Position numbers and translations under genes: made by a program. This document shows positions 2,772-19,713 of a DNA stretch of 37,432 nucleotides, one piece after another (the stretch's first letter is position 1; each line of letters opens with the position of its first letter). This DNA comes from a virus (Duplodnaviria > Heunggongvirae > Uroviricota > Caudoviricetes): the IMG/VR virus record IMGVR_UViG_2724679140_000013; one strand, given 5' to 3'. The notes below the pieces were generated by a model. That model was given only the letters and a program-made list of their open reading frames with translations, had not been told where the DNA came from and made no database searches.

Positions 2772-2787
2772 TCAGGAGGTTAGTGGG

Positions 2788-2991: not shown

Positions 2992-2997
2992 AACAAC

Positions 2998-3360: not shown

Positions 3361-3370
3361 CAGGTGAGTT

Positions 3371-3658: not shown

Positions 3659-3669
3659 AGGGCGTTGCG

Positions 3670-4022: not shown

Positions 4023-4108
4023 CAGAGCAAATAAAACCACAGGTTAAATAAGAAAATGTAAAAACAATCCGCATTCGCGGAGGTATTCGCACACGCCAAG
4101 GAGGCGTA

Positions 4109-4554: not shown

Positions 4555-4850
4555 GCGCCATCAACCACCAGGAATTACGCGAACTGGCGATTGACCTGCA
4601 ACGAATGGCAACGCATCAAAAATTACTGGCGTTTCGCGCAATGCTCTCGCCGTCTGCCGTGCTGGCACTGCTGGATGAGCTGGAGCACGCCAGAACCATG
4701 TCTCCAGCCATTCGCCTGGCGCTCCATCATGAAATCGCTGATTTCTGCGCTCCACTGGGTTCGCCTGGTGAACCAGAAACGCCGGAAGCAATGCAACGAG
4801 AGCTACTGCAACGCATCGACAAGGTTTTTGATTTCTTCCTTAACCAGTAA
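4551..4850 (+). CDS. Hypothetical early protein (99 aa)
   Basis: Overlapping start/stop with the upstream gene; helical, acidic. Confidence 0.55.
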   Translation: MSAINHQELRELAIDLQRMATHQKLLAFRAMLSPSAVLALLDELEHARTMSPAIRLALHHEIADFCAPLGSPGEPETPEAMQRELLQRIDKVFDFFLNQ

Positions 4851-4861
4851 AGGACCGCGAT

Positions 4862-5065
4862 ATGAACAAAAAGACCTGGTTTCGCGCATACATGTGGGCG
4901 CTGGTATGCGTCCTCGTTTCTCTCATTCTGTATGCAGGACTACTCCCCCGAATGATTTCATCAGACAGCTCCTTCTTGGTATTGCTGGGCATTTTCATTG
5001 CCATGCTGTACCCGGCAGGCGTTGTTCGCCTTTTCAGTAAGTACATCAAGGAAATCAAACAATGA
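4862..5065 (+). CDS. Small two-TM membrane protein coupled to the SPFH gene
   Basis: 67 aa; two hydrophobic helices (WALVCVLVSLILYAGLL, FLVLLGIFIAMLYPAGVV); ATGA overlap with the next gene. Confidence 0.6.
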   Translation: MNKKTWFRAYMWALVCVLVSLILYAGLLPRMISSDSSFLVLLGIFIAMLYPAGVVRLFSKYIKEIKQ

Positions 5066-5892
5066 AGAAACTCAAACTCTTTCAGATTATCCCGCTTTTT
5101 GCCGCCATCCTGCTGGTTGGTTGCGATCGCGTTGAGCCAGGTAATGTGGGCATCAAAGTCAACAAACTGGGCGACGACAAAGGCGTCGGTGAAGTGGTTG
5201 GCGTTGGCCGCTACTGGACAGGCTGGAATACAGAGGTTTACATCTTCCCGACCTTCAAACAAATGAAGACCTACGATGAGCCGTTCAGCTTTCAGATGAG
5301 TGACGGCACAACCATCGGCTATCACATCGGTGTGGCCTACAAGGTTGATCCATCCAAAGTTACTACAGTGTTTCAGACCTACCGCAAAGGCGTGGACGAC
5401 ATTACCGACACTGACCTGCGCCAGAAGATCGCCGATGCACTCAACCGACTGGCCAGCAAAATGACCACCGATAAATTCATCGACGGTGGCAAGTCTGAAC
5501 TGCTGGATTCAGCACTTAAAGATATTCAGGAAGAGATGACCCCCATCGGTATTCAGGTCATGAGCCTCTCTTATGTCGGTAAACCGGAATATCCGCCAAC
5601 CGTTATCGACAGCATTAACGCCAAAGTCACGGCAAACCAGAAAACCCTGCAACGCGAACAGGAAGTCAAGCAACGCGAAGCAGAAGCCAACATGTTGCGC
5701 GCAGAAGCTGCCGGACAGGCTGATGCCATTCGCACAAAAGCCCAGGCTGAAGCCGACGCCATTCGTTTACGCGGTGAAGCTCTGCGCCAGAATCCCGGCG
5801 TTATGGAGCTGGAAGCAATCAACAAATGGAACGGCACGCTGCCGCAATACATGACCAGCAATACCGCTGTTCCGTTTGTTCCGGTGAAGTAA
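5062..5892 (+). CDS. SPFH/band-7 (prohibitin/flotillin-like) lipoprotein
   Basis: 276 aa; lipobox LLVGC; SPFH core followed by an Ala/Glu/Arg-rich coiled coil (QREQEVKQREAEANMLRAEAAGQADAIRTKAQAEADAIRLRGEA). Confidence 0.85.
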   Translation: MKKLKLFQIIPLFAAILLVGCDRVEPGNVGIKVNKLGDDKGVGEVVGVGRYWTGWNTEVYIFPTFKQMKTYDEPFSFQMSDGTTIGYHIGVAYKVDPSKVTTVFQTYRKGVDDITDTDLRQKIADALNRLASKMTTDKFIDGGKSELLDSALKDIQEEMTPIGIQVMSLSYVGKPEYPPTVIDSINAKVTANQKTLQREQEVKQREAEANMLRAEAAGQADAIRTKAQAEADAIRLRGEALRQNPGVMELEAINKWNGTLPQYMTSNTAVPFVPVK

Positions 5893-5898
5893 TTAAAC

Positions 5899-5923
5899 CC
5901 GGCCAGTGAAAATCGCTGGCCGG
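5899..5923 (+). terminator. Stem-loop after the SPFH gene (possible terminator)
   Basis: CCGGCCAG-N9-CTGGCCGG; the T-run is displaced (5937-5942), so efficiency is uncertain. Confidence 0.35.
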
Positions 5924-5969
5924 AGCAGTATCAGGATTTTTTAGTATGCCGTTCTCACAAAAAAACCGC

Positions 5970-5999
5970 TTGCCATGCCGCAATCAGTCAGGTTACATT
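5970..5999 (+). promoter_or_regulatory. Candidate sigma-70 promoter reading into the a1b1/c4-like region
   Basis: TTGCCA-N18-TACATT; sequence inspection only. Confidence 0.3.
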
Positions 6000-6030
6000 T
6001 CCGCTGCACCTCATAAAACGGGTGCCGGGA

Positions 6031-6054
6031 TTGGAACCCCGCAGACTAACAGAG
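6031..6054 (+). promoter_or_regulatory. Upstream antisense-RNA target pair (a1b1-like)
   Basis: TTGGAAC (6031-6037) and CTAACAGAG (6046-6054) are exact complements of GTTCCAA (6175-6181) and CTCTGTTAG (6160-6168). Confidence 0.5.
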
Positions 6055-6059
6055 CGCAC

Positions 6060-6080
6060 AACCGCGCCAGCGGTTTTTTT
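6060..6080 (+). terminator. Intrinsic terminator directly after a1b1
   Basis: AACCGC-GCCA-GCGGTT followed by a T7 run. Confidence 0.55.
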
Positions 6081-6121
6081 GTGCGTACCGTATCGCCACG
6101 TCTTTTTCGCGTCAAAATTAT

Positions 6122-6200
6122 GGTGGGGCGTACAGGGCCAGCATCAGCTGGGCCGGGTCCTCTGTTAGCCGGTAGTTCCAACCCTGTACGTCTCACCACC
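6122..6200 (+). ncRNA. Candidate c4 / CI-type antisense immunity RNA
   Basis: 16-bp closing stem GGTGGGGCGTACAGGG / CCCTGTACGTCTCACC (two G-U pairs) enclosing hairpins CCAGC-ATCA-GCTGG and GCCGG-loop-CCGGT; the loop carries CCTCTGTTAG (b') and the adjacent single strand carries GTTCCAA (a'); ACC tail after the stem. Confidence 0.55.
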
Positions 6201-6231
6201 CCGAGCTTGGAACCTCTGGATGGTGAGTTTT
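6192..6231 (+). terminator. Terminator/attenuator hairpin overlapping the 3' arm of the c4-like stem
   Basis: CTCACCA (6192-6198) pairs with TGGTGAG (6221-6227), followed by TTTT; mutually exclusive with the 6122-6197 stem; the a2 site lies in its loop. Confidence 0.4.
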
Positions 6232-6252
6232 CAAAACTGACTAACAGAGAGG
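6207..6252 (+). promoter_or_regulatory. Downstream antisense-RNA target pair (a2b2-like) overlapping the SD of the 75-aa ORF
   Basis: TTGGAAC (6207-6213) and CTAACAGAG (6241-6249); SD GAGAGG at 6247-6252, ATG at 6260. Confidence 0.5.
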
Positions 6253-6259
6253 CCACACC

Positions 6260-6487
6260 ATGGCAAACCGCAAACAGCGCGCATACGCTGCGCGTCGTCA
6301 CATCCAGACTGAAATCGACCGCAGACTTTCCCGCGCATTCCGCGTCGCTAAAATCATGCACATCAACATGCTGCATGAGCGTAGCTGCGAACTTTCAAAC
6401 CTCTACTCATCCGCTGTTTTCAGCTATCTGGCGGATGATCTGCGCGAGCTTCAACAGCTCATCCAGCAGCAAAACAAACTCCATTAA
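6260..6487 (+). CDS. Hypothetical 75-aa protein; position analogous to P1 icd
   Basis: SD GAGAGG 7 nt upstream; basic N-terminus, helical C-terminus; first ORF after the a2b2 site. Confidence 0.6.
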   Translation: MANRKQRAYAARRHIQTEIDRRLSRAFRVAKIMHINMLHERSCELSNLYSSAVFSYLADDLRELQQLIQQQNKLH

Positions 6488-6559
6488 TTCCTGTTCCGGG
6501 CCTTTCCTGCACCTTGCGGCGGGAGGCCTTCGCACATCTGTAACAAGAGGATTGCCGCA

Positions 6560-6925
6560 ATGATTCTCGCCAACGACTTTCTTGAATACCTGCTCAACAC
6601 AGAACGTGATCTTGCCGCTCGCGTGCGTGATCGTTATGACATGTACCTGAAATCCCTGCCTGTACCGCAACTCGCTGACGGAAAAATTGTTATTGATGGT
6701 CGCTACATGATTGACAGCCACGAGGGAAATTACAGGCTTTACCGCATTGAAGGTGGCACCCCGTCCGTTATTGGCATTTACCAGCGCCCATCCTCTGCAA
6801 TCGTCGATGTGATTGCCGACAGCATCCGCATCACACATCGCCATGCCGACACAGAAGACACCGTGCTGGAAATTCAGCGGCTGGCTGCCGTCTGCCGCGA
6901 CACCCTGAATGGCATGACGAAGTAA
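6560..6925 (+). CDS. Hypothetical 121-aa protein upstream of A
   Basis: SD AGAGGA; ends 6 nt before gene A. Confidence 0.6.
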   Translation: MILANDFLEYLLNTERDLAARVRDRYDMYLKSLPVPQLADGKIVIDGRYMIDSHEGNYRLYRIEGGTPSVIGIYQRPSSAIVDVIADSIRITHRHADTEDTVLEIQRLAAVCRDTLNGMTK

Positions 6926-6931
6926 ATCACT

Positions 6932-9754
6932 ATGACGGCAGAGTACATCAGGGACTGGCAACAGCCGCGCCACGCAGTGGGACGTGAAGGAACGGGGATC
7001 CCCGTTCCTGAATCCGCGCTTTCCTCCTGGCTGGATGCCTACCGGGCAGAGAACGAGCGCCGCCAGGAAATGGCTGATGCGGCGTTCTCCGCCACGCCGC
7101 TGGGCAACCTGATTAATAAAAGCCTGGATGCACAGGAAAAACAGGACAAAACCATCACACTGGCAGGAGACGCCAGAAAACAGGTACGCGGTGCGGTGGA
7201 TGAAGCCATGGCCTCGCTGCGCCTGCTGCCGTCCTATCTGCGCGATCCGCTTATTCGCCACCTCTCCTTCCTGCGCAAAAAACAGGAAGCCGATCGCCGG
7301 AAAGGCAAAAAGAGCTGGCAGGCTGAACGCTACGCGCGCGGAACCCTGCGCAAAATATTCGAACGTCTGGACCGCACCGACCACCGCTGGCTGACACCGG
7401 GTTATCGCTCCCTTGCCGGACGCGAACGCCTGGATGATTTGCTTTACCTGCCGCAGCTCAACAAGCACCAGATACAGACGCTGGCCACCATGACGGCGGC
7501 GATGTTCAGCAGCACCTTCGAAAAACTCTGCGATGGCTTTGGCGCGACTGATGGCGAGCTGACCATGGAGGTAACGCTGAAGGCGTATCAGATGCTGGCC
7601 CGCATGGCGTTACACCTGCACGCCATGCCTCCGCATTATGACGCACTGACAACAGACAAAGACCGGAGGAACGAACCGGACACGGAGTTGCTGCCGGGCG
7701 CAATCCTTCGCCTGACCTGTGCGGAATGGTGGAAACGCAAACTGTGGCTGTTACGTTGCGAGTGGCGGGAAGAACAACTCCGCGCCGCCTGTCTGGTTTC
7801 CAGAAAAACATCGCCCTATCTGAGCCAGGACGCGTTAAGCGAGTTTCGAGCACAGCGCGAGAAAACACGCGATTTCCTGAAAAGTTTCATGCTGGAAAAC
7901 GAAGACGGGTTCACGATTGATCTCGAGACGGTGTATTACGCGGGAGTAAGTAATCCGGTTCATCGTAAGGCAGAAATGATGGCCACCATGAAGGGGCTGG
8001 AACTTCTGGCCGAAGCCCGTGGCGACAAAGCGGTGTTTCTGACTGTCACCTGCCCGTCAAAATACCACGCCACAACAGAGAACGGTCATCCGAATCCCAA
8101 ATGGAACGGGGCCACCATGCGCGACTCCAGCGATTACCTGGTTAACACGTTTTTTGCGGCGGTCCGCAAGAAACTGAACCGCGACGGCCTGCGCTGGTAT
8201 GGCATCCGCACGGTGGAGCCTCACCATGACGGCACCGTGCACTGGCATATGATGGTCTTTGCTCATCCGGAAGAAATCGACACCATTGTGTCCCACACCC
8301 GCGATATTGCCATTCAGGAAGATCGTCACGAGCTGGGTGATGATATTACCCCACGCTTTAAGGCGGAGTACGTCGACGGCTCAAAAGGCACACCGACCAG
8401 CTACATCGCCACCTACATCGGGAAAAACCTGGACAGCCGTGCCGTGGATGGCATCGACCCGAAAACGGGCAAGCCACGCGTTGACCACGAAACCGGAAAA
8501 TCAATGGCCGAGAGCGTGGAACGCGCCATCGGCTGGGCGCGCCTTCACCGGGTCCGCCAGTTCCAGTTCTTTGGTATCCCCTCCCGTCAGGTGTGGCGTG
8601 AACTGCGCCGCCTTGCCAGCCAGATGGCTCGCAACCCGGAAGGACCGCAACGGCTGAAGGATGACGCAATGGACGCGGTTCTTGCTTCCGCTGATGCCGG
8701 ATGTTTTGCCACCTACATAGAGAAACAGGGCGGCGTACTTGTTCCACGCAAGGACTACCTGATTCGCACCGCCTACGACCTCGCAGATGAGCTGAACGAT
8801 TACGGTGAACAGAGCGTACAGATTTACGGGATCTGGTCACCGCTCATCGGGGAGTCTTCCCGCGTATGCACGCATCCGGACAACTGGAAGCTGGTAAGAC
8901 GCAAACCGGAAGCGGAAGACAGCGCCCGCGAAAATGGTTTTGACCTTCAGGGCGGCCCTGCCGCCCCTTGGACTCGTGGCAATAACTGTCCCCGTATACA
9001 GGAAACGGGCAACAACGGGACAGAACAGCCGGAAGAACGGCCAGCACCGTGGCCGCAGCTTCCTGACGGCGTTGACGTGAATGAATGGATGCGCTCACTG
9101 AAACGGCACGAACACCGGGCGCTGATGCGTTCGCTGCGTGACAAACAGGCAAAAAACAGCAGTGATGAAATGCAGAACTGGACACAGAGCCGCAAACAGC
9201 CACAGCCTTTGCCTGATAACCACGAGTTACTCGCTAAAGAATGGCGGGAGTCTGCTGAATCTCTCGGCCTGCATATCGGTGAACAGCAGATGCAGCACCT
9301 GTTACGGGGCGGCAGTCTGTACGTTGACGGCAGCATCATTGCACCGCAGGGATTTGAAATTGTACGCAAACCGGATACCCGCCCGGACAGCCGAATCACG
9401 CAGCTCTGGCAGCGCCTGAGCCGTAACCACGGCGTAAGCAGCACGGAGATCCGCCATAACCCGGTCGCCAGCTATCTGGAACAGCTGGGGGCATCAGACC
9501 CCGAAGCCGCCGCACGCCTGGCATCCACACTTCAGCAAGACCAGAACACCATGAAAACACCCGTTACCGTGCTTTCTGACATGCTGCGCGCCATCCGCGA
9601 CGCAGAGCACGCACAGAGAATCAGTGAAACCACTGAACGCGCCCGCCGCAAAGCAGACCTGCTGCGGGGTGGCCTGACCAGTGGAAACAAAAAACAGACA
9701 GAAACGGGATTCACAAATCCCGTAAATGAGCAAAAAACGCGCCGCGATATATGA
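6932..9754 (+). CDS. A: Rolling-circle replication initiation endonuclease (P2 gpA family), with a long C-terminal extension
   Basis: 940 aa; HUH-type motif HHDGTVHWHMMVF and paired-tyrosine motif SYIATYIGKN as in P2 A. Confidence 0.9.
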   Translation: MTAEYIRDWQQPRHAVGREGTGIPVPESALSSWLDAYRAENERRQEMADAAFSATPLGNLINKSLDAQEKQDKTITLAGDARKQVRGAVDEAMASLRLLPSYLRDPLIRHLSFLRKKQEADRRKGKKSWQAERYARGTLRKIFERLDRTDHRWLTPGYRSLAGRERLDDLLYLPQLNKHQIQTLATMTAAMFSSTFEKLCDGFGATDGELTMEVTLKAYQMLARMALHLHAMPPHYDALTTDKDRRNEPDTELLPGAILRLTCAEWWKRKLWLLRCEWREEQLRAACLVSRKTSPYLSQDALSEFRAQREKTRDFLKSFMLENEDGFTIDLETVYYAGVSNPVHRKAEMMATMKGLELLAEARGDKAVFLTVTCPSKYHATTENGHPNPKWNGATMRDSSDYLVNTFFAAVRKKLNRDGLRWYGIRTVEPHHDGTVHWHMMVFAHPEEIDTIVSHTRDIAIQEDRHELGDDITPRFKAEYVDGSKGTPTSYIATYIGKNLDSRAVDGIDPKTGKPRVDHETGKSMAESVERAIGWARLHRVRQFQFFGIPSRQVWRELRRLASQMARNPEGPQRLKDDAMDAVLASADAGCFATYIEKQGGVLVPRKDYLIRTAYDLADELNDYGEQSVQIYGIWSPLIGESSRVCTHPDNWKLVRRKPEAEDSARENGFDLQGGPAAPWTRGNNCPRIQETGNNGTEQPEERPAPWPQLPDGVDVNEWMRSLKRHEHRALMRSLRDKQAKNSSDEMQNWTQSRKQPQPLPDNHELLAKEWRESAESLGLHIGEQQMQHLLRGGSLYVDGSIIAPQGFEIVRKPDTRPDSRITQLWQRLSRNHGVSSTEIRHNPVASYLEQLGASDPEAAARLASTLQQDQNTMKTPVTVLSDMLRAIRDAEHAQRISETTERARRKADLLRGGLTSGNKKQTETGFTNPVNEQKTRRDI

Positions 9755-9804
9755 AGCGCGCATAAAACAGGCAAAAACGGGATTTCAGAATCCCGTAAAC
9801 GATT
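9688..9804. repeat. Two copies of a ~42-bp repeat, each containing a perfect 20-bp palindrome; candidate parC centromere/operator
   Basis: ACGGGATT-CACA-AATCCCGT (9704-9723, inside the 3' end of A) and ACGGGATT-TCAG-AATCCCGT (9777-9796); 73 bp centre to centre; flanks AAAACAGRCARAA and AAAYGA also repeated; immediately upstream of parM. Confidence 0.5.
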
Positions 9805-9830
9805 AATTAATCAACATAAGGAAAAGCGAC

Positions 9831-10790
9831 ATGAAAATTTGTATCGATGACGGCTCCACCAACATCAAGCTGGCATGGACTGAGAACGGCGAACGCCGCA
9901 ACGCCATCAGCCCGAACAGCTTCAAGTCGGAATGGTCTGCGCCGTTCGGTGGAACGCAGCCCGCAAACTACATGCTTGATGGCGTGCGCTATGGTTTTGA
10001 TCCGGTCAGCGATCGCTTTGTCCAGACGACCGACACGCAATACCAGTACAGCGATGTGAATGTCATTGCCATTCATCACGCGCTGGTCAAATCAGGCATC
10101 ACACCACAGGAAGTGGATGTGGTTGTCACCCTGCCACTGAGCGAATATTTCGACACCAACGCACAGCCGGACATGGCCAACATCAACCGCAAAAAAGCAA
10201 ACGTCATGCGCCCGGTGGCGTACCAGAACGGAAAAGCATTCACTATCCGTAACGTACGGGTTATGCCTGAATCCATTCCGGCTGGTTTTAAAGCACTGGC
10301 TGACATGAGTCCGTTTGAATCCCTGCTGATTGTGGATTTAGGCGGAACCACGCTGGATGTGGCAAAGGTTCAGGGACAACTGGCAGGTATCAGCCAGGTG
10401 TTTTGCGATCCACACGTAGGCGTTTCCCTGATGGCCGATGCCGTACTGTCGGTGATGGCCACTAACGGTATGCGTACCAGTCACCACATCGCCAATACCA
10501 TTATCGAACATCGCCATGATGAAGCCTGGCTGCGCCAGCACATCCACAATGACGCGCATTACGCCAGCCTGATGGCGGTTATTCGTGAAAAGGAAGAAAC
10601 ACTGAAACAACGCGTGATCCGCGCGCTGGCGGGTTTTTCGGGTTACGGGCGGGTGATGGTTGTCGGTGGAGGGGCGGAGATTGTGGCACCCGCTATCCGC
10701 GAAGCCTGCGGAGTTAATGCGACTTTCATCGCGGACGGGGTGCCACAGTTTGCTCTGGTTAACGGGCTGTACGCAATGGACAAGGAGTAA
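9831..10790 (+). CDS. parM: Actin-like plasmid segregation ATPase ParM/StbA
   Basis: 319 aa; collinear with plasmid R1 ParM as I recall it (MKICIDDGSTNIKLAW, ISPNSFKSEW, YQYSDVNVIAIHHAL, VMPESIPAG, LIVDLGGTTLDV, VMVVGGGAE). Confidence 0.9.
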   Translation: MKICIDDGSTNIKLAWTENGERRNAISPNSFKSEWSAPFGGTQPANYMLDGVRYGFDPVSDRFVQTTDTQYQYSDVNVIAIHHALVKSGITPQEVDVVVTLPLSEYFDTNAQPDMANINRKKANVMRPVAYQNGKAFTIRNVRVMPESIPAGFKALADMSPFESLLIVDLGGTTLDVAKVQGQLAGISQVFCDPHVGVSLMADAVLSVMATNGMRTSHHIANTIIEHRHDEAWLRQHIHNDAHYASLMAVIREKEETLKQRVIRALAGFSGYGRVMVVGGGAEIVAPAIREACGVNATFIADGVPQFALVNGLYAMDKE

Positions 10791-10794
10791 ACCA

Positions 10795-11109
10795 ATGACG
10801 ACACCAACCAGACGGATAAGTTTCTATCTGAAGCCAGCTGCAGTCAAGAGTGAACGGGAAGCGTGTAATTATCTCGACAGCCTGCCAGCCTCCGAACGCA
10901 GCCGCGCGCAACGCGCGGCATTTCTGGCTGGACTGGCACTCATTAAAAACGATCCTGCCTTTGCTTACTGGCTGGCTGAATGGTCAGAGGGGGAAAATAT
11001 GCCTGCCAACAATCACATATGGGGCTGGCATAACAGCGAGCCTGTTGGTTGCAAAAATCAGAATATAAGTCAAATAAAAAAGAATATTCAGGAATTTTTT
11101 CCTGAATGA
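10795..11109 (+). CDS. parR: ParR-like centromere-binding adaptor (RHH)
   Basis: 104 aa; SD AGGAG; RRISFYLKP...LDSLPASERSRAQRAAFLAGLALIKNDP parallels the R1 ParR N-terminal domain; directly downstream of parM. Confidence 0.75.
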   Translation: MTTPTRRISFYLKPAAVKSEREACNYLDSLPASERSRAQRAAFLAGLALIKNDPAFAYWLAEWSEGENMPANNHIWGWHNSEPVGCKNQNISQIKKNIQEFFPE

Positions 11110-11113
11110 TCAC

Positions 11114-11140
11114 AAAAAGCATGGCTTTCGCCATGCTTTT
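11114..11140. terminator. Bidirectional intrinsic terminator
   Basis: AAAAAGCATGGC-TTTC-GCCATGCTTTT; A-run and T-run flank the stem; lies between convergent parR and the 49-aa ORF. Confidence 0.7.
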
Positions 11141-11152
11141 AAATATCAAATA

Positions 11153-11302
11153 TCAGCTTCGCACTAGAAACGCCCAAGCTTTCCAGCCATACTCATGAGC
11201 ATCCAGCTTTCGACCAGAATCACCACGAACCTTACGGTATCGGCAAAACTGCCAACGAAATCCTTTCGGAGCCGGTTTTTTTACAATTGATTTCAAAGCC
11301 AT
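11153..11302 (-). CDS. Possible 49-aa basic mini-protein
   Basis: AAGGAGG 9 nt upstream of the ATG; MALKSIVKKPAPKGFRWQFCRYRKVRGDSGRKLDAHEYGWKAWAFLVRS; bracketed by terminators; below the ORF-track cutoff. Confidence 0.35.
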   Translation of the reverse strand: MALKSIVKKPAPKGFRWQFCRYRKVRGDSGRKLDAHEYGWKAWAFLVRS

Positions 11303-11430
11303 CCATAATCACCTCCTTACTGAGAATGATTTTTACCTTGATTATCTGCCTGGATTGACTAGAATCACAGTTGTACATGCAAAACATCAAGGTGATGATA
11401 TTTCTCAGACTATCATTCCTTTGTGTTGAA

Positions 11431-11462
11431 AAGCCCCTGACGGTTGGCCCCGTCAGGGGCTT
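11431..11462 (-). terminator. Intrinsic terminator of the toxin-antitoxin operon
   Basis: Minus strand reads AAGCCCCTGACGGGGCCAACCGTCAGGGGCTT followed by TTTCAA; begins 6 nt after the antitoxin stop. Confidence 0.65.
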
Positions 11463-11467
11463 AATAT

Positions 11468-11785
11468 TTATGCAACCTGACAGGAATGTTCTGCCGTCGC
11501 AGTAACAACCCCACCGGAATACCCAAACTTAAAATCCCACCCCAGGATGTTTAGCATGATAAACAGTCGATCAATGGTATGATTATCTAACTTACCATTA
11601 ATGATTTCGCTTACTCTTGGTTGGGTTGTTTCCAGCAATTCAGCAGCTTCTCGCTGGGTAAGACCGCGCTCCTGAATCATTTTTCGGATAATAACCATTA
11701 ATTGGGCCCGGATGTGTTTATCACTAGCTTCATTTACAGAGCTACTTGATGACGCATAAGGGTTTTTGACTACGACGAATTCCAT
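11468..11785 (-). CDS. XRE-family HTH antitoxin (HigA-like)
   Basis: 105 aa; GLTQREAAELLETTQPRVSEIINGKLDNHTIDRLFIMLNILG is the typical HigA/XRE antitoxin pattern; downstream of the toxin. Confidence 0.8.
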   Translation of the reverse strand: MEFVVVKNPYASSSSSVNEASDKHIRAQLMVIIRKMIQERGLTQREAAELLETTQPRVSEIINGKLDNHTIDRLFIMLNILGWDFKFGYSGGVVTATAEHSCQVA

Positions 11786-11855
11786 AACTCTCCAGCCTTA
11801 ATCAGCGATGTTGCTGACATTGATTATGTTATATCAGATTTGAGATACCTGCAAG

Positions 11856-12257
11856 CTATCTTAAGCCATTTTTACGACGATACTCCACTAATTGTTTGTA
11901 TCTTGCGGCAGCTGTCTCATATTCTTTTTTTGACACACCATTTGTCTTTTTCTTAAATGTATGAAGTATGTAAACAGACTCCGCAAATTTCGCAACGTAA
12001 ATCATACGATAAGAATCACTACTCTTGATGGTTAATTGCATTGCGTAGCGACCAATCGTTTCCCGCATTGATTTTTTTTGAGCAGGTGGAACCCCCAAGG
12101 CATCATCACCATCCACTGGAAAATCGAAACTGTCGAAAGAATGAGGACAATCGCTCTGCAGTGCAACAAGCTCAAAATTTATCCTTTCTCGAACAGCTTC
12201 AGGATAACTATCAATTTGTTTCTGAATTTTATCATTCCAATATGTGATGTCTTTCAC
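11856..12257 (-). CDS. Gp49/RelE-HigB-superfamily toxin
   Basis: 133 aa, GTG start with SD GAGAGG; YRMIYVAKFAESVYILHTFKKKTNGVSKKEYETAAARYKQL matches the Gp49-like RelE/ParE toxin C-terminal pattern; toxin-first order as in higBA. Confidence 0.7.
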   Translation of the reverse strand: MKDITYWNDKIQKQIDSYPEAVRERINFELVALQSDCPHSFDSFDFPVDGDDALGVPPAQKKSMRETIGRYAMQLTIKSSDSYRMIYVAKFAESVYILHTFKKKTNGVSKKEYETAAARYKQLVEYRRKNGLR

Positions 12258-12288
12258 TCAGAACCTCTCACCAACGTAACCGAACGAA

Positions 12289-12296
12289 ATTATACA
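12289..12296 (-). promoter_or_regulatory. Extended -10 element (TGTATAAT) for the toxin-antitoxin operon
   Basis: Minus strand reads TGTATAAT about 30 nt upstream of the toxin GTG. Confidence 0.45.
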
Positions 12297-12348
12297 AAGA
12301 TCTTTTTTTCGCTTAAATACATCCACTGAACGTTGATTTTAATGCAAG

Positions 12349-12370
12349 ATTGTGCACAAATTTGCACAAT
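12349..12370. promoter_or_regulatory. Operator-like half-site array
   Basis: ATTGTGC-N8-GCACAAT; contains the 10-bp palindrome TTGTGCACAA; GTGCACAAA recurs at 12434-12442. Confidence 0.4.
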
Positions 12371-12394
12371 TTTTTTGAACGACTTTTTGCCCTT

Positions 12395-12470
12395 CCGGCC
12401 CGCGTGGCGGCTGGATCCGCCAAGGATCCGTGCGTGCACAAAAAAACGCGTTTTTTCTGCGCGCAGGTGA
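12395..12470. other. Candidate cos (cohesive end / terminase recognition) core
   Basis: Position matches P2 cos (between the hotspot and Q); GCGTGGCGG matches the core of the 186-type cohesive end GGCGTGGCGGGGAAAGCAT as I recall it; GGATCCG repeated 11 bp apart; GGCGG/CCGCC dyad; palindrome AAAAAACGCGTTTTTT (12441-12456). Confidence 0.3.
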
Positions 12471-12741
12471 CGGGGGAACAGCCCGCGTTTCAGGGGGTAA
12501 ATAGCATTCCCTGAACGATGTCGCAGCGACACAACAGAATGGCTGTATCGCTCACGCTGAGCGTGAAAAATACGTAAGGGGTTCTGATTTGATGGGGTGA
12601 AAGGTAAGGCCGTCAAATCGCAATGAGACGGCGAGAACATGCTGTCAGCTCGATGGGATTGCGTAAGAGTCTGGCCATCGATGATGGCGATAAGTTGGAA
12701 GACGTCGTGAAATTATCTGATTGATACGGGAGCTGGAGAGT

Positions 12742-12766
12742 CGGGGCATAAATTTTTTATGCCCCG
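12742..12766. other. Perfect 11-bp-stem hairpin
   Basis: CGGGGCATAAA-TTT-TTTATGCCCCG; no flanking U-run on either strand. Confidence 0.5.
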
Positions 12767-12867
12767 GCGAAGCAGCAGACAAGCGAAGCGCGTCAGTGAT
12801 GCGGCACCTTGCCGACCACACTCCATAAGTGCAAAATACGAGCAAAGAAATCAATGGAGGCTGTTTT

Positions 12868-13392
12868 ATGGTCATTAATTACAAGCAGTTACGAGAAAAA
12901 CGAGAGCAGGTAAAGGAAAGTTTTCGCCGCAATGAAGATCTGACCCCGCTTGTACACCTTGCCCAGGGAATTGTTGATGCTTATGAAATCTCTCTGGAGC
13001 TGCCATCACAGACATGGACGGATAGCGACGGTAATCGCCAGCATTACGTTTCATGCGGACTGGAAACAACTGAAGGGTTTCGCAGAATGCCTTTATCTCA
13101 GATTCCTGCCGCTACCCCCAAAGCAAGGGGCGGCAATGATGAGCGAAAACTGATTTTTAGCATTGAGACAGTGGTTGACGACACACCTGGCGAAGTCGCG
13201 TTCGTGCATACTCCTCTTTCGATCGCAATGTATAACGATGAAATACAGGTTCGCGTTAATAATAATATCGTGCCACTTAAAGAAGGTAATTCACCCTACA
13301 CCACCGTTTGTGAAGCCATTCAATATTACGTTCTCTCTGAAATTGATAATCTCAAGCCTGACGGCACCCAGAAAATGGTTCAACTCTGGTAA
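12868..13392 (+). CDS. Hypothetical 174-aa orphan between the probable cos and the portal gene
   Basis: SD GGAGG 7 nt upstream of ATG 12868 (preferred to the 12829 ORF start); own terminator; no motif I recognise. Confidence 0.6.
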   Translation: MVINYKQLREKREQVKESFRRNEDLTPLVHLAQGIVDAYEISLELPSQTWTDSDGNRQHYVSCGLETTEGFRRMPLSQIPAATPKARGGNDERKLIFSIETVVDDTPGEVAFVHTPLSIAMYNDEIQVRVNNNIVPLKEGNSPYTTVCEAIQYYVLSEIDNLKPDGTQKMVQLW

Positions 13393-13397
13393 TAAGG

Positions 13398-13423
13398 ACA
13401 GCCCCATCACGGGGCTGTTTTTT
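13398..13423. terminator. Bidirectional intrinsic terminator shared by the 174-aa gene and Q
   Basis: ACAGCCCC-ATCAC-GGGGCTGT followed by T6; overlaps the last codons of Q. Confidence 0.7.
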
Positions 13424-14453
13424 CATCAAGAAGTGCATAAGAGTTAAAACGGATCACCTCTTCGCCAAGCCAGTCATTGATGTGCTTCATGGCCTCCATG
13501 ACGGGCATCAGCTCGTTAATTGCGTAAACCCGCGCGGCCTTCTCCACATCACCAAACGCACTTTTTTCACCCGGCATCGCCCCCATCAGTTGCGGCGGAA
13601 CGCGGTGCGCAGCCAGCACATCATCACGGGATGCCGCCTTAACATTCATGAACTCATCCTTTGCGGTGATCTGCTGGAACGGCAAAATTTGCACCCCCTC
13701 TTTGCCCCCGTTGGGCGCATGAATGAGCACGTTTTTAAACGCACCACCACCACGTGCCCCCTGTAGCGTTTCTTTCAGGGAGTCCATGCTTTCGCGGTTT
13801 ACCTGCGCTGCACCGATGTAGATGATGCACCCGGCGTGGGATCCGTTGTCGTAATACAGTTTTCTGAACATGTCCGCCGAATGAGACAGGCTGGCCGAGA
13901 GTAATGCGCCAAGATATTCCGGCATGCCGTAAATTTCCTGGTTAATGTCAGGATTCATCAGGTGGCACACTTTACCAGGGCGAAACTGAAACGCATCCTT
14001 GCCATCCTGCACATACCACCATGATTCAAGATCGCTTCCGCGTCGCATGTATTTCGCCAGGGCGTGCCGTAATTTAAGCGGTTCGCCGAGCATATTGCTC
14101 CGAAGCTCAAGGAATGCGTTACCGAACACAAACCAGTCCAGCGCCAGCGCCGAGAAATCCTGCCGGGAAAGCAGCGGGTGCGGAATGTAGCAACCGAGCA
14201 ATACATTACGCTTAAAGTAAAGCGCAGACTGATGCCAGGACGTTTGCCGGGCAGCTCTTGCCAGACCGTACCAGTCCACCGGGGTTTCATACCACCGCCC
14301 GTTATCAGCACAGTACATGTTGTCCAGCAGGTCATGCCCGGTCAGGCGATAAGGACCATCAAATGTGAATGCACTGAGCGATGATTCTTTCCTGAGCGCA
14401 TCAGCGAGATCAATGCGTGAACTCATGCGCACTTTTTTATTTTTTCTGCTCAT
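13407..14453 (-). CDS. Q: Portal protein (P2 gpQ)
   Basis: 348 aa; size, position and orientation as P2 Q; overlaps the P stop. Confidence 0.9.
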   Translation of the reverse strand: MSRKNKKVRMSSRIDLADALRKESSLSAFTFDGPYRLTGHDLLDNMYCADNGRWYETPVDWYGLARAARQTSWHQSALYFKRNVLLGCYIPHPLLSRQDFSALALDWFVFGNAFLELRSNMLGEPLKLRHALAKYMRRGSDLESWWYVQDGKDAFQFRPGKVCHLMNPDINQEIYGMPEYLGALLSASLSHSADMFRKLYYDNGSHAGCIIYIGAAQVNRESMDSLKETLQGARGGGAFKNVLIHAPNGGKEGVQILPFQQITAKDEFMNVKAASRDDVLAAHRVPPQLMGAMPGEKSAFGDVEKAARVYAINELMPVMEAMKHINDWLGEEVIRFNSYALLDEKTAP

Positions 14454-16204
14454 CAGAACTCCATAACCGTGAAACGCTCGTTTTCTCCTTCGCCGCCAAT
14501 CGGTTCGTTAATGACAGCAAGCATGGTTGCCCACGCAAGGTCGCCGTGGCTGATCCCCCTCGCGCGGTCCGTTTCGTAAGTGATAAAGCCGCCCGGTGTT
14601 TTCACCTTACGCACGGCGTTAAAGGCCGCGACCAGCTCGCGTTCGGCGCGATCGTATTCCCACCGCCCGGCACGCATTATTTGCAGCATTTTCAGTACCA
14701 GCGACCGTTTTGATGACAGCGTGAAGGTGTACGGAATAGCAGCAGGGAAAAACCGTTTCACTATCTGATAAACAGCCTCCCCGTTCCCGCCCGTCACATC
14801 AATGCCGATGTGTTCCACGTTGTAGCGACACGTGAACTCTTCAATGACTCTGGCCTGTTCTTCAAACTCCAGCCCCTGAACGCGTCGCGTCTCCACCGTT
14901 CGAAAACGGCCTCCAGGAACAGCCGGAGGAACCACTACGGACACAGCGCCGCTGTCGCCGTTTCCACTGCTGCCGTTTGCGTCATACCCAATCCATACCG
15001 GACGATTCCCCATCGGGCGGGGAGCAAAAGGTTTCCAGTCTTTCCAGTCGTCGTATCCGTCAACACCGCAGCCAATCAGTATATTCAGGTTAAATGCCGA
15101 TTCCCCTTCGCGGACAAACTCACACATATAGAGATTGCGGAACTCGTCTTCGGTGTTTTCATCACGAATTTCGTCAATATCGGTGTGTTTCCAGCCGTGA
15201 TTAACCACATCTTCCAGCGTGACAATTTGCCGCCACGTCCGGTCAGGGCAGATAAGCCCGTTATGCAGCGTTTTCCAGTCCACAGAAAAACGCTGACGTT
15301 TATGCGTGGCCTTTTTCTCGTTCCAGCGGTCGCCGTTCCAGTAGGCGTATGCCTCGTGCGTTTCGGTGGATGGCGTGGAGAAGTAGGTGCGCCGCAGTCC
15401 GCTGAGGGTTGCCATAGCGCCAGCCACCTTGCGCAGTTCAGCAAAGCGACTGACCCAGAAAAATTCATCAAAATAAAAATTGCCCGTGTAGGACTGTGCC
15501 GTCGCAGCAGAAGTACCAAGAAAATGCAGCTCTGCGCCGTTGGAGAGGATGATTTTATCGCCCCCTTTCAGCTCCACATCAACTTCAGATGCAGCCTTCT
15601 GAATAATGCTTTTAAACTGGAACGCCTGACGACGCGACGCAGACAAAAAAATCTGGTTACGCTGGTAAGGTTGCGCCACATCGTCACGCAGCGCCATCAG
15701 CAGTGCTTCCTGTGCAAAATACCAGGTCGCCCCAATCTGTCGGGATTTCAGGATCATCCTGTTACGTATCCCGGCTTCACTGCAAAGGGTCAGGGAGTCA
15801 AACCAGCCCCGCTGATGCCACTCCAGCCTGCTGATGATTTTTTCCCGCAGTGCGGCAATCTGCTCCGGCGTGAAATGATTTTTAAGTTTTTTCGCCCGGC
15901 CTTTCTTTCCTGTGGCCGTCACATCCGGCTGGCCATCATGCAGTTTTTTAAGCTGCCGGGTCAGCAGGTCTATTTCCTTAAAGTCACCGCCTGTTTTATT
16001 CTGTTTTTCAGTAAGCTGGATGAGGCGCGCATCGATGGACTGCGTGACACGCTGCACGGGTGGCGTTTCATCCCACTGGTCGCGTTTTTTCCACGCATAA
16101 ATCGTGTTCGGGTTTATTCCCATCAGACGTGATATTTCTGCGGGCGGATAACCCTGCCAGTAAAGTTGCCGCGCACGCTGGCGCACAAAAGCGTCCTGAA
16201 TCAT
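14453..16204 (-). CDS. P: Terminase large subunit (P2 gpP)
   Basis: 583 aa; N-terminal HTH-like region, ATPase and nuclease regions; Q-P pair divergent from O. Confidence 0.9.
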   Translation of the reverse strand: MIQDAFVRQRARQLYWQGYPPAEISRLMGINPNTIYAWKKRDQWDETPPVQRVTQSIDARLIQLTEKQNKTGGDFKEIDLLTRQLKKLHDGQPDVTATGKKGRAKKLKNHFTPEQIAALREKIISRLEWHQRGWFDSLTLCSEAGIRNRMILKSRQIGATWYFAQEALLMALRDDVAQPYQRNQIFLSASRRQAFQFKSIIQKAASEVDVELKGGDKIILSNGAELHFLGTSAATAQSYTGNFYFDEFFWVSRFAELRKVAGAMATLSGLRRTYFSTPSTETHEAYAYWNGDRWNEKKATHKRQRFSVDWKTLHNGLICPDRTWRQIVTLEDVVNHGWKHTDIDEIRDENTEDEFRNLYMCEFVREGESAFNLNILIGCGVDGYDDWKDWKPFAPRPMGNRPVWIGYDANGSSGNGDSGAVSVVVPPAVPGGRFRTVETRRVQGLEFEEQARVIEEFTCRYNVEHIGIDVTGGNGEAVYQIVKRFFPAAIPYTFTLSSKRSLVLKMLQIMRAGRWEYDRAERELVAAFNAVRKVKTPGGFITYETDRARGISHGDLAWATMLAVINEPIGGEGENERFTVMEF

Positions 16205-16358
16205 TGCTCCCCCTGAGTAATTACAGGAAGATTACCCGCGCGCGAAACCGTTCTCCTTAACCCCCTGTTCTGGCCGTTTTCTTACAACAAAAGCCCTTTG
16301 TATCAGCCTGTTACGCTTTGCCATCATGACTGAAGAACCAGTCAGAGGGGCAAAAACT

Positions 16359-17195
16359 ATGGCTAATGAAAAAAAGACATCCCGCAAAAAGTTTCGCGTG
16401 GCTGTCTCCGGATCAACTGTTGATGGCCGCGAAATCAGTCCGGTACATCTGCGTGAAGCCGCCGAGAACTTCAACCCGGATGTTTACGCTGCCCGCGTGA
16501 ACGTTGAGCACTATCTCTCGCCATGCCCGTCAAGCGAATTTTCCGCAATGGGCGATGTCACCGCGCTGAGTACGGAAGATATTACGGAAGGCCCGCTGGC
16601 CGGACGTACTGCGCTGTATGCAGAAATCGAACCGACCGAGCGCATGAAGCAGCTTGTCGCTGACGGCAAGAAAATCTATTCCAGTATCGAACTGCACCCG
16701 CAGTTCTCCGTTAACGGGCGCGCCTATCTGGTCGGGCTGGCGATGACCGACACCCCGGCAAGCCTGGGCACTGAGCGCCTGAAATTCACGGCACAGCAAC
16801 GTCAGGCGGTGATGACGTTCAACAGTGTCCAGGGTGAAGCACCGCTTATCTCCGAAGCCATCGAGTCTGAAATCATCGAAATGGCAGAACAACGCCAGGA
16901 AGAAGGCACCCAGTGGTTTAACCGCGTAATGGGGATTATTGGCCGTGGCCGCAAAGCGGATGACGCCAGTTTCTCCCGCATTCAGGAAGCGGTGGAAGGC
17001 GTCGCAACGTCACAGGCCGACATTATCGACCGTTTTAATGTGCTGGAAACCCGCCATCAGCAGGACCGCCAGAAAATCACGTCACTGACCACAGAGCTGA
17101 CAGCACTGAAGGAAAAACTGCGCACGCAGGACGGCGATCCGCAGAACCGCTTCACCGCAACGGGCGCAGCCTCCGACCAGCTGGCTGACTTCTGA
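16359..17195 (+). CDS. O: Capsid scaffold protein (P2 gpO)
   Basis: Start at MANEKK (SD AGAGGGG); FRVAVSGSTVDGREIS...YLVGLAMTDTPASLGTE parallels P2 O. Confidence 0.85.
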   Translation: MANEKKTSRKKFRVAVSGSTVDGREISPVHLREAAENFNPDVYAARVNVEHYLSPCPSSEFSAMGDVTALSTEDITEGPLAGRTALYAEIEPTERMKQLVADGKKIYSSIELHPQFSVNGRAYLVGLAMTDTPASLGTERLKFTAQQRQAVMTFNSVQGEAPLISEAIESEIIEMAEQRQEEGTQWFNRVMGIIGRGRKADDASFSRIQEAVEGVATSQADIIDRFNVLETRHQQDRQKITSLTTELTALKEKLRTQDGDPQNRFTATGAASDQLADF

Positions 17196-17218
17196 TAAGA
17201 CAAAGGAGCAAATTTTTT

Positions 17219-18271
17219 ATGAATCTGGTGATGTCAGATATTACCCGCAACAAGCTGGGTTGCTATATGGCGCAGCAGGCGTCGCTTAACAATATCCCGG
17301 TTTCCGCACTGGTATCGCGATTTACCGTGGAACCCTCGGTACAGCAGCGTTTTGAAAACGCCTCAAAGGAAAGCACCGAATTTACAAAAAGAATTAACGT
17401 GATCGGCGTGACCGACCAGAAAGGCGAAAAAATCCTCCCGGATACCACCGGGCCGATTGCGCGCACGAATACCAGTTATGACGGCACAAAACGCCGTAAC
17501 CCGAATAACGTGGTTGATCTGAAAAACCGCAAATACCAGTGCGAACAGGTGAACTACGACACGTTTATTTCATATCCGCAGCTTGATGCCTGGGCGGCAC
17601 ACCCTGATTTTCAGTCCCGCATCAGCGCACAGATTGCCCGACAGGTGGCACTTGACCGCATCATGATCGGTTTCAACGGCACGTCTCACGCGGATGAGTC
17701 TAACTTCAGCACCAACAAGTTGCTTCAGGACGTTAACGTGGGCTGGCTGGAGCACATCAGAACCGACGCCAGCGAACGCGTTATGAATGACGTGACGCTG
17801 ACCTCCCGTAACATGGACAACACCGTGGCGCACGCGGGTAAGTATGCGAACGCTGATGCACTGGTACAGGACGCGCGCTCATCCCTGCTGGATGAATGGC
17901 ACAAGGAAGCTGACGACCTCGTGGTGATTATGGGGCGCAACCTGTTTAACTCGCTGCGTCTGCCCGTGCTGAACAGCATCAGCGGCCAGAATCCCAATGC
18001 GGAATTACTCGCCGGGCAGCTCATTCTGTCATCGCGCACCATTGGCGGGCTGGGCGTGTTCCTTGCGCCGTTCTTCCCGGATTCAACGATGCTGATCACC
18101 TCGTTCAACAACCTGTCGATTTACTGGCAGAAAGGTTCAATGCGTCGTCTGATGAAAGACGAACCGGAATACAACCGCATCGCCACCTACCAGTCCATCA
18201 ATGACGCTTATGTCGTTGAAGACTATGGCAAGTGCGCGATGGTCACTGGCCTGAAGTTCGCCGACAGCTAA
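17219..18271 (+). CDS. N: Major capsid protein (P2 gpN)
   Basis: 350 aa; FTVEPSVQQ, IMIGFNG, NLSIYWQ regions parallel P2 N. Confidence 0.9.
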   Translation: MNLVMSDITRNKLGCYMAQQASLNNIPVSALVSRFTVEPSVQQRFENASKESTEFTKRINVIGVTDQKGEKILPDTTGPIARTNTSYDGTKRRNPNNVVDLKNRKYQCEQVNYDTFISYPQLDAWAAHPDFQSRISAQIARQVALDRIMIGFNGTSHADESNFSTNKLLQDVNVGWLEHIRTDASERVMNDVTLTSRNMDNTVAHAGKYANADALVQDARSSLLDEWHKEADDLVVIMGRNLFNSLRLPVLNSISGQNPNAELLAGQLILSSRTIGGLGVFLAPFFPDSTMLITSFNNLSIYWQKGSMRRLMKDEPEYNRIATYQSINDAYVVEDYGKCAMVTGLKFADS

Positions 18272-18316
18272 TCAACTCACGGCGGGCATCATGCCCGCCT
18301 GTAACGGAGAGAAAGA

Positions 18317-19117
18317 ATGATTACTCCTGCACAGCAACACTGGCAGAACGTGATGGCACAGCGCGCAGGCCGGGCGAATGAAGGCGTGGACCACGCCGCG
18401 CGTACCGCGCATGAAGAGGTGCTGTATCGTCTGCGTCTGGCACAGGCCCGGCTTAAGGGCGTACAGGCAAGAAGCGCGAAAGCCGCCATCAAAAAAGAGT
18501 TGTTGCCGGATTTTTCCGGCTGGATTGAGGGAACGCTGGAGGCTGACGGCGGGCAGCAGGACGAAGTGATTGCCACGCTGATGGTGTGGGCGATTGACTG
18601 CGGCGATCTTCCGCTTGCGCTGCGTATTGGTGCGTATGTGGTCCGTCACAACCTCATCATGCCGGATAACTTTGGCCGTACTGCTGCCACGGTACTGACC
18701 GAAGAAATCTGCAACCCGGTACTGACGCAGGCCGGGACGGATGCCGACGCGGATTTGTCCACCTTTATCGAACCACTGGACACACTTTGGGAAATTGTCG
18801 CCAACCAGGATATGCCGGACGAAGTGCGCGCCAAATTATGCAAGGCGTGCGCCTTTGCCCGTCGTGGTCTGACCGATGCAGACAACATGGCCTTATCACT
18901 GAAGCTGCTGCGCGAAGCGATGCACCTGAACCCGAACGCAGGTGTGAAACGCGAGATTGCAACCCTTTCCCGCGCCCTGAAAAAAGCCGATTCCGCAGCC
19001 GCACCAGAAGACGCCAGCGCACAGCAGACGCAGGACGAAAGCAGCAAAAGTAAAAAGACAACGCGGAAGCCTGCAACACGAAAAACCACCGCGACGCAGA
19101 AGGCGAAGCGCGGTTAA
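18317..19117 (+). CDS. M: Terminase small subunit (P2 gpM)
   Basis: 266 aa; MITPAQQH..., DMPDEVRAKL, GVKREI, basic C-terminal tail as in P2 M. Confidence 0.85.
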   Translation: MITPAQQHWQNVMAQRAGRANEGVDHAARTAHEEVLYRLRLAQARLKGVQARSAKAAIKKELLPDFSGWIEGTLEADGGQQDEVIATLMVWAIDCGDLPLALRIGAYVVRHNLIMPDNFGRTAATVLTEEICNPVLTQAGTDADADLSTFIEPLDTLWEIVANQDMPDEVRAKLCKACAFARRGLTDADNMALSLKLLREAMHLNPNAGVKREIATLSRALKKADSAAAPEDASAQQTQDESSKSKKTTRKPATRKTTATQKAKRG

Positions 19118-19218
19118 CGACTGACCCCGTCAGCGGGCGGCGTGCGCGGTGTTCCGGTTTGACTCCGTGACCGTTTACACCGCGCACCCACCGCCCGATT
19201 TTTTCAGGAGTGAACCCC

Positions 19219-19713
19219 ATGAGTATGGTTGCCAGAACCAACCCCGGCCCCGCAGAGGACGACATCACCGATACCGATGATGGTGATACCCGTATTTCAG
19301 CGGGCGCATTCTGGCCGGATATTGTGCTGCGTGAGCTGCGTCTGGCGATACGACTGCCGGGCCGTGTGACCACCTCCCGCCTGCTGCATACCGCCACCGG
19401 GGCCGTGGCACACGTTACCCGCGAGCTGGAAGCGTGGCAGCAGGAACAACAGGCGGCTGGCCATCAGACGCTGGCCGATGTTCCGGCACCCGTAATTAAC
19501 GGAGAAAGCGTCAATCTCTGGCACTGGCGCAATGCCGTTTATACCGCCACACGCGCCCTGATTCTGGAGCGTTACCGCGATGCGGACACAACGGATAAGG
19601 GCGACCGCCGCGCGGACGCACTGGATATACAGACATCGGATTTGTGGCGCGATGTGAGCTGGGCCATCTCTGACATTCTGCGCCGCCCGCGAATCTTTGC
19701 GGAGTTGTGCTGA
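19219..19713 (+). CDS. L: Head completion/stabilisation protein (P2 gpL)
   Basis: ATG 19219 with SD AGGAG; LADVPA..INGES...ERYRD...KGDRRADAL...LWRD parallels P2 L. Confidence 0.8.
   Translation: MSMVARTNPGPAEDDITDTDDGDTRISAGAFWPDIVLRELRLAIRLPGRVTTSRLLHTATGAVAHVTRELEAWQQEQQAAGHQTLADVPAPVINGESVNLWHWRNAVYTATRALILERYRDADTTDKGDRRADALDIQTSDLWRDVSWAISDILRRPRIFAELC

Follow-up and report, generated by a model that had tools for sequence, protein, structure and literature searches.

Phages of the P2 family package their DNA from monomeric circles. Their cos site is given as a 55-bp core with 19-nt ends in those passages of PMC5694545, PMC3931495, and PMC2231350 that cite Ziermann and Calendar (1990), and the passage of PMC5694545 that cites Dodd and Egan (1996) and Nakayama (1999) describes the DNA between cos and a terminator of the tQ or tW type as replaceable by foreign genes. 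That a dependent satellite may share the cos block as its only common region with the phage is likewise stated as a principle (PMC9122126). The DNA considered here is the IMG/VR record IMGVR_UViG_2724679140_000013, whose whole length of 37,432 nucleotides is referred to as the window, and it belongs to the P88 type of P2-like prophages (Xuanwuvirus, Peduoviridae). The nearest phage records are P88-type Peduoviridae, with about 92% identity over 12331-12804, and the region is carried by 1,181 of 5,426 complete Escherichia coli genomes. Positions 12343-12507 of the window, inside a non-coding stretch (12258-12867), very probably constitute the cos of this prophage. The site is a P2-family cos with variant end and box sequences, followed by the usual replaceable DNA.

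Delimitation and anatomy of cos

Prophages of other genera (Citrobacter, Enterobacter, Kosakonia, Pantoea, Erwinia, Serratia, Symbiopectobacterium, and others) encode portal proteins 63-78% identical to that of the window, and homology at the DNA level extends only over about 12343-12499. A satellite-like element of E. coli, described below, has only 12343-12508 in common with the window, at about 80% identity. The two comparisons are independent and delimit the same block, and since homology to the other genera and to the satellite-like element is confined to it, 12343-12507 is read as cos. On the left, homology with relatives begins at 12343 in most copies; on the right, it stops at 12508 in the satellite-like element and at 12484-12499 in the other genera. 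The cos alignment comprised about 40 loci from many genera, and diversity was calculated in 75 distinct P88-type copies, where nucleotide diversity (pi) was 0.024 over the core and right flank of cos (12431-12507) and about 0 at 12460-12499. As a reference, the portal gene Q showed 0.098 at synonymous and 0.002 at non-synonymous sites in the same copies. Folded as DNA, the cos block reached a z score of -2.1 with respect to shuffled sequence.

The position of the block agrees with that of cos in P2, 186, and P4, which lies between the hotspot and the portal gene Q. In the window the hotspot is on the left, and the packaging genes Q-P and O-N-M-L, recognized with Pfam, are on the right (13407-19713), the same set Q, P, O, N, M, and L being found with the known sites; a further likeness is that cos is the only region shared between the phage and a satellite-like element. 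A preliminary description of the locus had proposed a P2-family cos between the hotspot and Q in this interval, and the comparison bears it out. The extent suggested there, perhaps 100-150 bp of an interval starting at 12371, needs correction, as the block measures about 165 bp and starts 28 bp further to the left.

The block opens on the plus strand with three boxes of the form TGCA(C/A)(A/G)A spaced by 10 bp (12343-12369; TGCAAGA at 12343, TGCACAA at 12353 and at 12363), which are nearly invariant in the aligned loci and in the satellite-like element and align with the three TGCAT boxes of P2, 186, and P4. A run of seven T followed by GAACGACTTTTTGCCCTTCCGGCCC comes next (12370-12397, plus strand); it is kept in the satellite-like element and across genera, with low variability at 12370-12379. 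The following segment (12398-12430) is a variable spacer containing GCGTGGCGG (12402-12410), a GGCGG-N6-CCGCC dyad (12406-12421), and two copies of GGATCCG (12413-12419 and 12424-12430). The satellite-like element and the other genera have an entirely different sequence there, P88-type copies vary among themselves, and a GC-rich dyad of other sequence occupies the same position in most relatives, in P4, and in 186. This spacer of about 33 bp between the boxes would tolerate any sequence, because of which the dyad and the GGATCC repeats are best regarded as lineage-specific.

Further to the right, on the plus strand, the counterpart of the left part of the 55-bp core (12435-12465) is formed by a nearly invariant fourth box, TGCACAAAAA (12435-12444), by the palindrome A6CGCGT6 (12441-12456), which is not conserved outside the P88 type, and by TGCGCGCA (12458-12465). 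All relatives keep TGCACAAAAA and GCGCGCA with little or no change, and TGCACAAAAA aligns with TGCATTAAAA of P2, 186, and P4, standing 31 nt before the cut here and 29 nt there. The element made of GCGCGCA and then GGTGACGGGGGAAC-AGCC (12459-12483) is nearly invariant and has a conserved G-run about 10 nt to its right. The homologue of the 19-nt cohesive end (cosN), GGTGACGGGGGAACAGCCC, occupies 12466-12484 on the plus strand, and the right flank, GCGTTTCAGGGGGTAAATAGCAT, which includes the G-run, occupies 12485-12507.

The elements listed in the preliminary description were all found again, no more than 1 nt away from where it had set them: the dyad, the GGATCCG pair, and the palindrome (AAAAAACGCGTTTTTT) just mentioned, a hairpin with arms TTCAGGG and CCCTGAA (12489-12495 and 12509-12515), a TCACGC-TGA-GCGTGA hairpin (12552-12566), and a perfect 11-bp stem with arms at 12742-12752 and 12756-12766. 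The repeat of GTGCACAAA is also present (12352-12360 and 12434-12442), but its first copy, which had been written as 12353, falls outside an interval said to start at 12371. The impression of a sequence dense in repeats and hairpins was sound: four of the five TGCACAA copies of the 37-kb window lie within the 92 bp of 12350-12441, which is above chance, and folding energies beat those of shuffled sequence both in the cos block and at 12500-12800. The term GC-rich is justified with respect to the AT-rich hotspot on the left (GC 0.51-0.59 in the interval vs. 0.32-0.43), but not with respect to the Q and P genes, whose GC content is about the same.

Proposed placement of the cut and likeness to known cos sites

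Alignment places the cut of the terminase probably at 12466-12484 (± 2 nt). No variation at all was observed over 12460-12479 in the 75 distinct copies. Nine related loci carry GCGCGCA-GGCGAGGCGGGGGAGCAAG-CGCGCGC in the columns where the window has GGTGACGGGGGAAC, and GGCGAGGCGGGGGAGCAAG is nearly the same as the P2 end, GGCGAGGCGGGGAAAGCAC. When the locus was aligned with the circularised junctions of P2 and 186 using MAFFT, the three TGCAT boxes, TGCATTAAAA, the 19-nt ends, and GCGCGC fell on corresponding columns, and the same four features could be read by eye in P4. P2 and P4 are nearly identical, with three differences, along a 55-bp stretch from TGCATT to GCGCGC, which agrees with the 55-bp core with 19-nt ends reported in the literature; its equivalent in the window lies at about 12435-12491.

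Several points weigh against this placement. The proposed end is identical to that of P2 at 13 of 19 positions, a level expected by chance alone, and the placement therefore depends on the context of the alignment and could be a few bases off. No mapped virion ends were found for any P88-type phage, and for two related cos types no phage record was found to start at the proposed cut. A single linear record, LR595891, begins inside the region; its start, corresponding to window position 12388, was considered as a mapped end and discarded, its first base having been chosen "relative to reference genomes" and not by experiment. Nor was any paper found that tested the binding of terminase to the TGCAC boxes.

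A cohesive end of the 186 type, centred on GCGTGGCGG at about 12401-12419 and with the dyad and the GGATCCG copies as cutting or binding parts, would move the cut to the left, where the preliminary description had seen it after recognizing in GCGTGGCGG the core of the 186 end. The identity is real, as positions 2-10 of the 186 end (GGCGTGGCGGGGAAAGCAT) read GCGTGGCGG, and the motif does lie inside the conserved cos block. However, the full 186 end matches there at only 11 of 19 positions and does equally well or better at unrelated sites of the window, so that the resemblance is at chance level; the satellite-like element and other genera have unrelated sequence in place of the segment, and among close relatives it mutates to GCGTGACAG, GTGTGGCGT, and GCGTGGTGG. 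The alignment with P2 and 186 that had been recommended as a check recovered the same layout, but with both ends about 60 bp to the right of GCGTGGCGG. A cut in the variable spacer is accordingly very improbable, and the cohesive-end homologue at 12466-12484 is retained. String matching of a known cohesive end proved unreliable, the site having been found only through its context in the alignment: many unrelated places of the window match the P2 or 186 ends at 13-15 of 19 positions, and scoring the window with the known 19-mers was non-discriminating.

The ends of IMG/VR contigs were also considered as virion ends and turned out to be uninformative, corresponding to insertion sequence (IS) insertions or otherwise to prophage or assembly boundaries. 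At one of them (IMGVR_UViG_2681813261_000011), an insertion element abuts the cosN homologue at the equivalent of window 12465/12466 and splits off the TGCAC boxes, and this prophage presumably is no longer packageable. We take the insertion element to be an IS1 end, and another IMG/VR contig end to be IS186.

The layout of the site is that of P2, 186, and P4, with three TGCAY boxes, a spacer, a TGCAYNAAAA box that precedes a G-rich 19-nt end by about 30 nt, and flanks rich in GC. It differs from them in that the boxes are TGCAC in the window and TGCAT in those phages, in the end itself (GGTGACGGGGGAACAGCCC in the window, six positions away from P2), and in a spacer between the fourth box and the end that is 2 nt longer. 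To the right of the end, about 23 nt are conserved in the window type, as compared to about 7 nt between P2 and P4, and the distance from cos to Q amounts to 168 bp in P2, about 310 bp in P88 types without the gene cassette described below, and 923 bp in the window. The ends of P2, 186, and P4 are 19-nt 5' cohesive ends; those of the window would be so by homology. The cos of lambda (cosQ-cosN-cosB) is comparable only in its working, with a nicking site, a spacer, and flanking repeats recognized by the small terminase subunit, whereas there is no sequence relationship, the overhang is 12 nt instead of 19 nt, and the repeats are found on the flank opposite the terminase genes.

By homology with P2, P4, and 186, cos would be recognized after replication by a terminase made of the small subunit gpM and the large subunit gpP, probably through the three phased TGCAC boxes and the fourth box TGCACAAAAA. 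Staggered nicks around GGTGACGGGGGAACAGCCC (12466-12484) would then generate 19-nt 5' cohesive ends, and the genome would be packaged through the portal. The three TGCAC-type boxes are presumed to be the terminase recognition repeats; a lesser, alternative reading is that the three phased TGCAY boxes represent a hitherto unrecognized binding array of the small terminase subunit, being conserved from P2 to the P88 types and the satellites and located outside the classical 55-bp core. In the literature we found no paper on the P88 cos or on gpM binding sites. One step does not derive from the known phages, namely the copy of exactly the 165-bp block in the satellite-like element, which likely would serve for packaging by the same terminase.

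Spacer, hairpin module, and gene cassette between cos and Q

Past a spacer at 12508-12704, the sequence is again strongly constrained. The block at 12705-12796, with a pi of 0.009-0.015 as a whole, consists of an extended hairpin (12732-12776), whose core at 12742-12766 is a perfect 11-bp stem, and of an almost invariant 28-nt tail, GAAGCAGCAGACAAGCGAAGCGCGTCAG (12769-12796). Over 12742-12796 pi was 0.002 in the 75 distinct copies, and hairpin and tail vary about 20-fold less than neutral sites do. The hairpin is a structure under selection: its stem is kept across variants through GC-to-CG, GC-to-AU, and UA-to-AU changes, and its covariation score is 0.155 vs. 0.087 for shuffles, none of 500 reaching it, and 0.02-0.05 when the partners are slid. 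A structured-RNA role is possible for this element of about 65 nt.

The block is always located at the 3' end of a gene, be it Q, an ogr-like gene, or a gene for 167 amino acids (aa). Homology with relatives that lack the gene cassette ends exactly at TCA 12793-12795, which in them is the stop codon of Q; in one locus (L271) the same TCA ends an ogr/Delta-like gene, and in another (L146) the hairpin follows a plus-strand 167-aa homologue (L146:2995-3498) of the 174-aa gene carried by the cassette. The E. coli genomes carrying the region, roughly 1,180, also have the block. A copy of 12732-12796 with about 80% identity occurs in a SPI-7/PAPI-like integrative and conjugative element (ICE) of 54 E. 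coli genomes, upstream of the gene for a STY4528-family replication protein (L147:3502-3566, and L148, L149, and L150); in a BLAST search the tail was absent from other genera.

Chances are about even that the hairpin block is a transcription 3'-end module, in which case it would most likely act as a non-canonical two-directional stop or a 3'-end stabiliser, separating the late P-Q operon from rightward transcripts. The closest described counterparts are tQ of P2 and tW of 186, annotated as rho-independent terminators, which like the block are GC-rich hairpins placed after the portal stop, between Q and cos; cassette-free P88 types have the hairpin 26 nt downstream of the Q stop, and in all other P2-like loci examined the Q stop is closely followed by a GC-rich hairpin, in some of them with a T-run. 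The window differs in that its hairpin is 640 bp from the present Q stop, with a 0.6-kb cassette in between, in its AT-rich mid-stem, and in its invariant 28-nt tail; the whole element, moreover, recurs in the ICE and where other genes end. Against a role as transcription stop stands the lack of a U-tract after the stem on either strand (GGCGAAGC on the plus and GACTCTCC on the minus strand), a further difference from tQ and tW, and the consensus scan made no terminator call at the hairpin. The tail is more conserved than a terminator needs, the block is equally conserved in cassette copies, where it is 610 bp from Q, and the compensatory changes of the stem come from only about three lineages. 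Here, Rfam 15 returned nothing at the gathering score and, at E up to 5, only a nematode small nucleolar RNA model (E = 3.2).

The cassette (12797-13423, plus strand) lies between the hairpin module and Q and is inserted exactly at the ancestral stop codon of Q. It contains a promoter-like TTGCCG-17-CAAAAT (12809-12837), a GGAGG ribosome-binding site (12856-12860), and a 174-aa open reading frame (ORF; 12868-13392), all on the plus strand, the protein matching phrog_5091, of unknown function. It is closed by a terminator hairpin followed by six T (13399-13417), and the Q stop codon of today (13407-13409) lies in the loop of that hairpin. The gene thus equipped with a promoter-like site, a site for ribosome binding, and a terminator of its own looks like a self-contained cassette. 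It was present in 28 of the 75 distinct copies, the gene being lacking in 46.

Other explanations of the DNA between cos and Q have to be weighed against this background. It is rather unlikely that 12732-12796, instead of being a transcription stop, acts on the DNA level, be it as an operator-like palindrome for a dimeric protein or as a boundary where cassettes are exchanged through recombination, or that it is an undescribed small RNA or 3' untranslated region element. Such a view would accommodate the missing U-tract, the almost invariant tail, the occurrence of the same element in an unrelated mobile element, a pairing slightly better on the plus strand (85% vs. 81%), and the coincidence of the element's ends with recombination junctions (12796/12797 for the cassette in the window, 12729/12730 for the 167-aa gene in L146). 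Yet the element sits always at a gene 3' end, its last bases being the stop codon of the abutting minus-strand gene, its position matches that of tQ in P2 and tW in 186 as well as that of the hairpins of all other P2-like loci examined, and no protein is known as a candidate to bind the palindrome. We similarly hold it unlikely that 12732-12796 is an undescribed mobile cis element or small structured RNA, serving as a portable gene-end and boundary module for the swapping of cargo. The preliminary description had offered a different idea, that the roughly 300 bp remaining beyond cos encode a leader or a non-coding RNA working with the 174-aa gene. As a structured RNA of this kind, 12508-12830 would be in keeping with the compensatory changes of the large hairpin and with a folding of 12500-12800 that is better than that of shuffled sequence (z = -2.8 on the plus and -3.5 on the minus strand), and a minus-strand hairpin at 12525-12552 covaries weakly, 5 of 500 shuffles reaching its score. 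This last value, however, is within the range of related sequences without structure, and in an alifold analysis covering both strands of 12485-12796 nearly every change was one-sided. Moreover, most copies are without the 174-aa gene and yet have the region, conserved to the same degree, and in L146 the homologous gene is on the other side of the hairpin; 12508-12704 is almost neutral and absent from other genera, no promoter-like site was found upstream on the plus strand, and beyond the nematode model no Rfam family matched, even at E up to 5. The hairpin block predates the 174-aa gene and therefore is not its leader, and an RNA partnership with that gene has very little to recommend it.

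A protein-coding role for the same interval is the least credible of the proposals. An ORF for 42 aa (33 aa in the window) at 12597-12724 remains open in 74 of 83 copies, and the records of P88 and P88_4B11 list it as a hypothetical protein, but its frame has a pN/pS of 0.81, as compared to 0.71 and 0.55 in the other two frames, and variable sites are spread over the three codon positions (17/15/14). The start codon varies between GTG, ATG, TTG, GTA, and GTT, and frameshift or nonsense mutations occur in the other nine copies, including the window, where AAA instead of AAAA at 12616-12618, unique among the 75 distinct copies, is a 1-bp deletion that frameshifts the pseudo-ORF. Neither this ORF nor a 116-aa ORF on the minus strand found a match in Pfam or PHROGs, in line with the absence of a credible ORF already stated in the preliminary description. 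The segment 12508-12704 is a dispensable spacer with local hairpins and a decayed ORF, near-neutral in its diversity (pi 0.074, in the range 0.07-0.08, vs. 0.098 at synonymous sites of Q) and not conserved outside the P88 type.

Public records place small genes for hypothetical proteins on top of cos, spacer, and hairpin (L001:205-333, L002:2604-2895, L003:2863-2976, L010:8893-9153, and L146:1913-2620), and they look like annotation artefacts.

The strand antisense to Q is G-rich in the spacer, and this bias is general in the family. From cosN to the Q stop (12485-12796 in the window, 20-186 in P2, 20-195 in 186), the GC skew of this strand ranged from +0.11 to +0.46 in 26 P2-family loci and was at least +0.20 in all but one, as compared to -0.09 in the Q and P genes; it persists family-wide although the sequences of the interval are unrelated between groups. 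Since the G-rich strand is antisense to Q, RNA in the sense of Q would be C-rich and G-poor, like Rho-loading sites. The interval could serve for the loading of Rho onto the late transcript, or the skew could be a property of the chromosome end, which we mention as a lead and not as a finding.

The satellite-like element and the context of the prophage

The satellite-like element that shares the cos block (L010, NZ_CP051609.1 3782471-3800627; element at about 124-12628, cos copy at 8992-9157) represents an integrative type of 12.7 kb that adjoins hpt and was found in 56 complete E. coli genomes. It encodes two integrases, an Icd-like protein, a toprim primase, an Ogr/Delta zinc-finger protein, a P2-family major capsid protein (423 aa), and MazEF, and is without portal, terminase, or tail genes. 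It looks like a P4-like satellite with a capsid protein of its own.

Within the prophage, a ParM-like gene (9831-10790, plus strand) is followed in the left hotspot by a toxin-antitoxin pair on the minus strand, composed of a Gp49/HigB-like toxin (PF05973) and an HTH_37 antitoxin (11468-12257), which is hotspot cargo directly to the left of cos. On the right, Pfam identified the portal gene Q (13407-14453) and the gpP-type large terminase gene P (14453-16204) on the minus strand and the genes for gpO, gpN, the small terminase subunit gpM (18317-19117), and gpL on the plus strand (16326-19713). Two Rfam matches above the gathering score were recorded on the plus strand, isrK (72 bits, 6006-6080) and C4 antisense RNA (78 bits, 6116-6203), the latter being the immunity RNA of the P1/P7 type. 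Three tRNA genes on the minus strand near the right end of the window (36433-36732) may mark the integration site.

The three TGCAY boxes, the occurrence of the hairpin module in an ICE as well, and a satellite-like element with its own capsid gene are mildly new, and the observations leave the picture of P2-like phage function unchanged. With P88-type prophages present in about one in five complete E. coli genomes, knowledge of the cos block and of the likely cut site means that genome records can begin at the right base, that satellite-like elements copying the block become recognizable, and that spurious small genes called over it by annotation pipelines can be removed.

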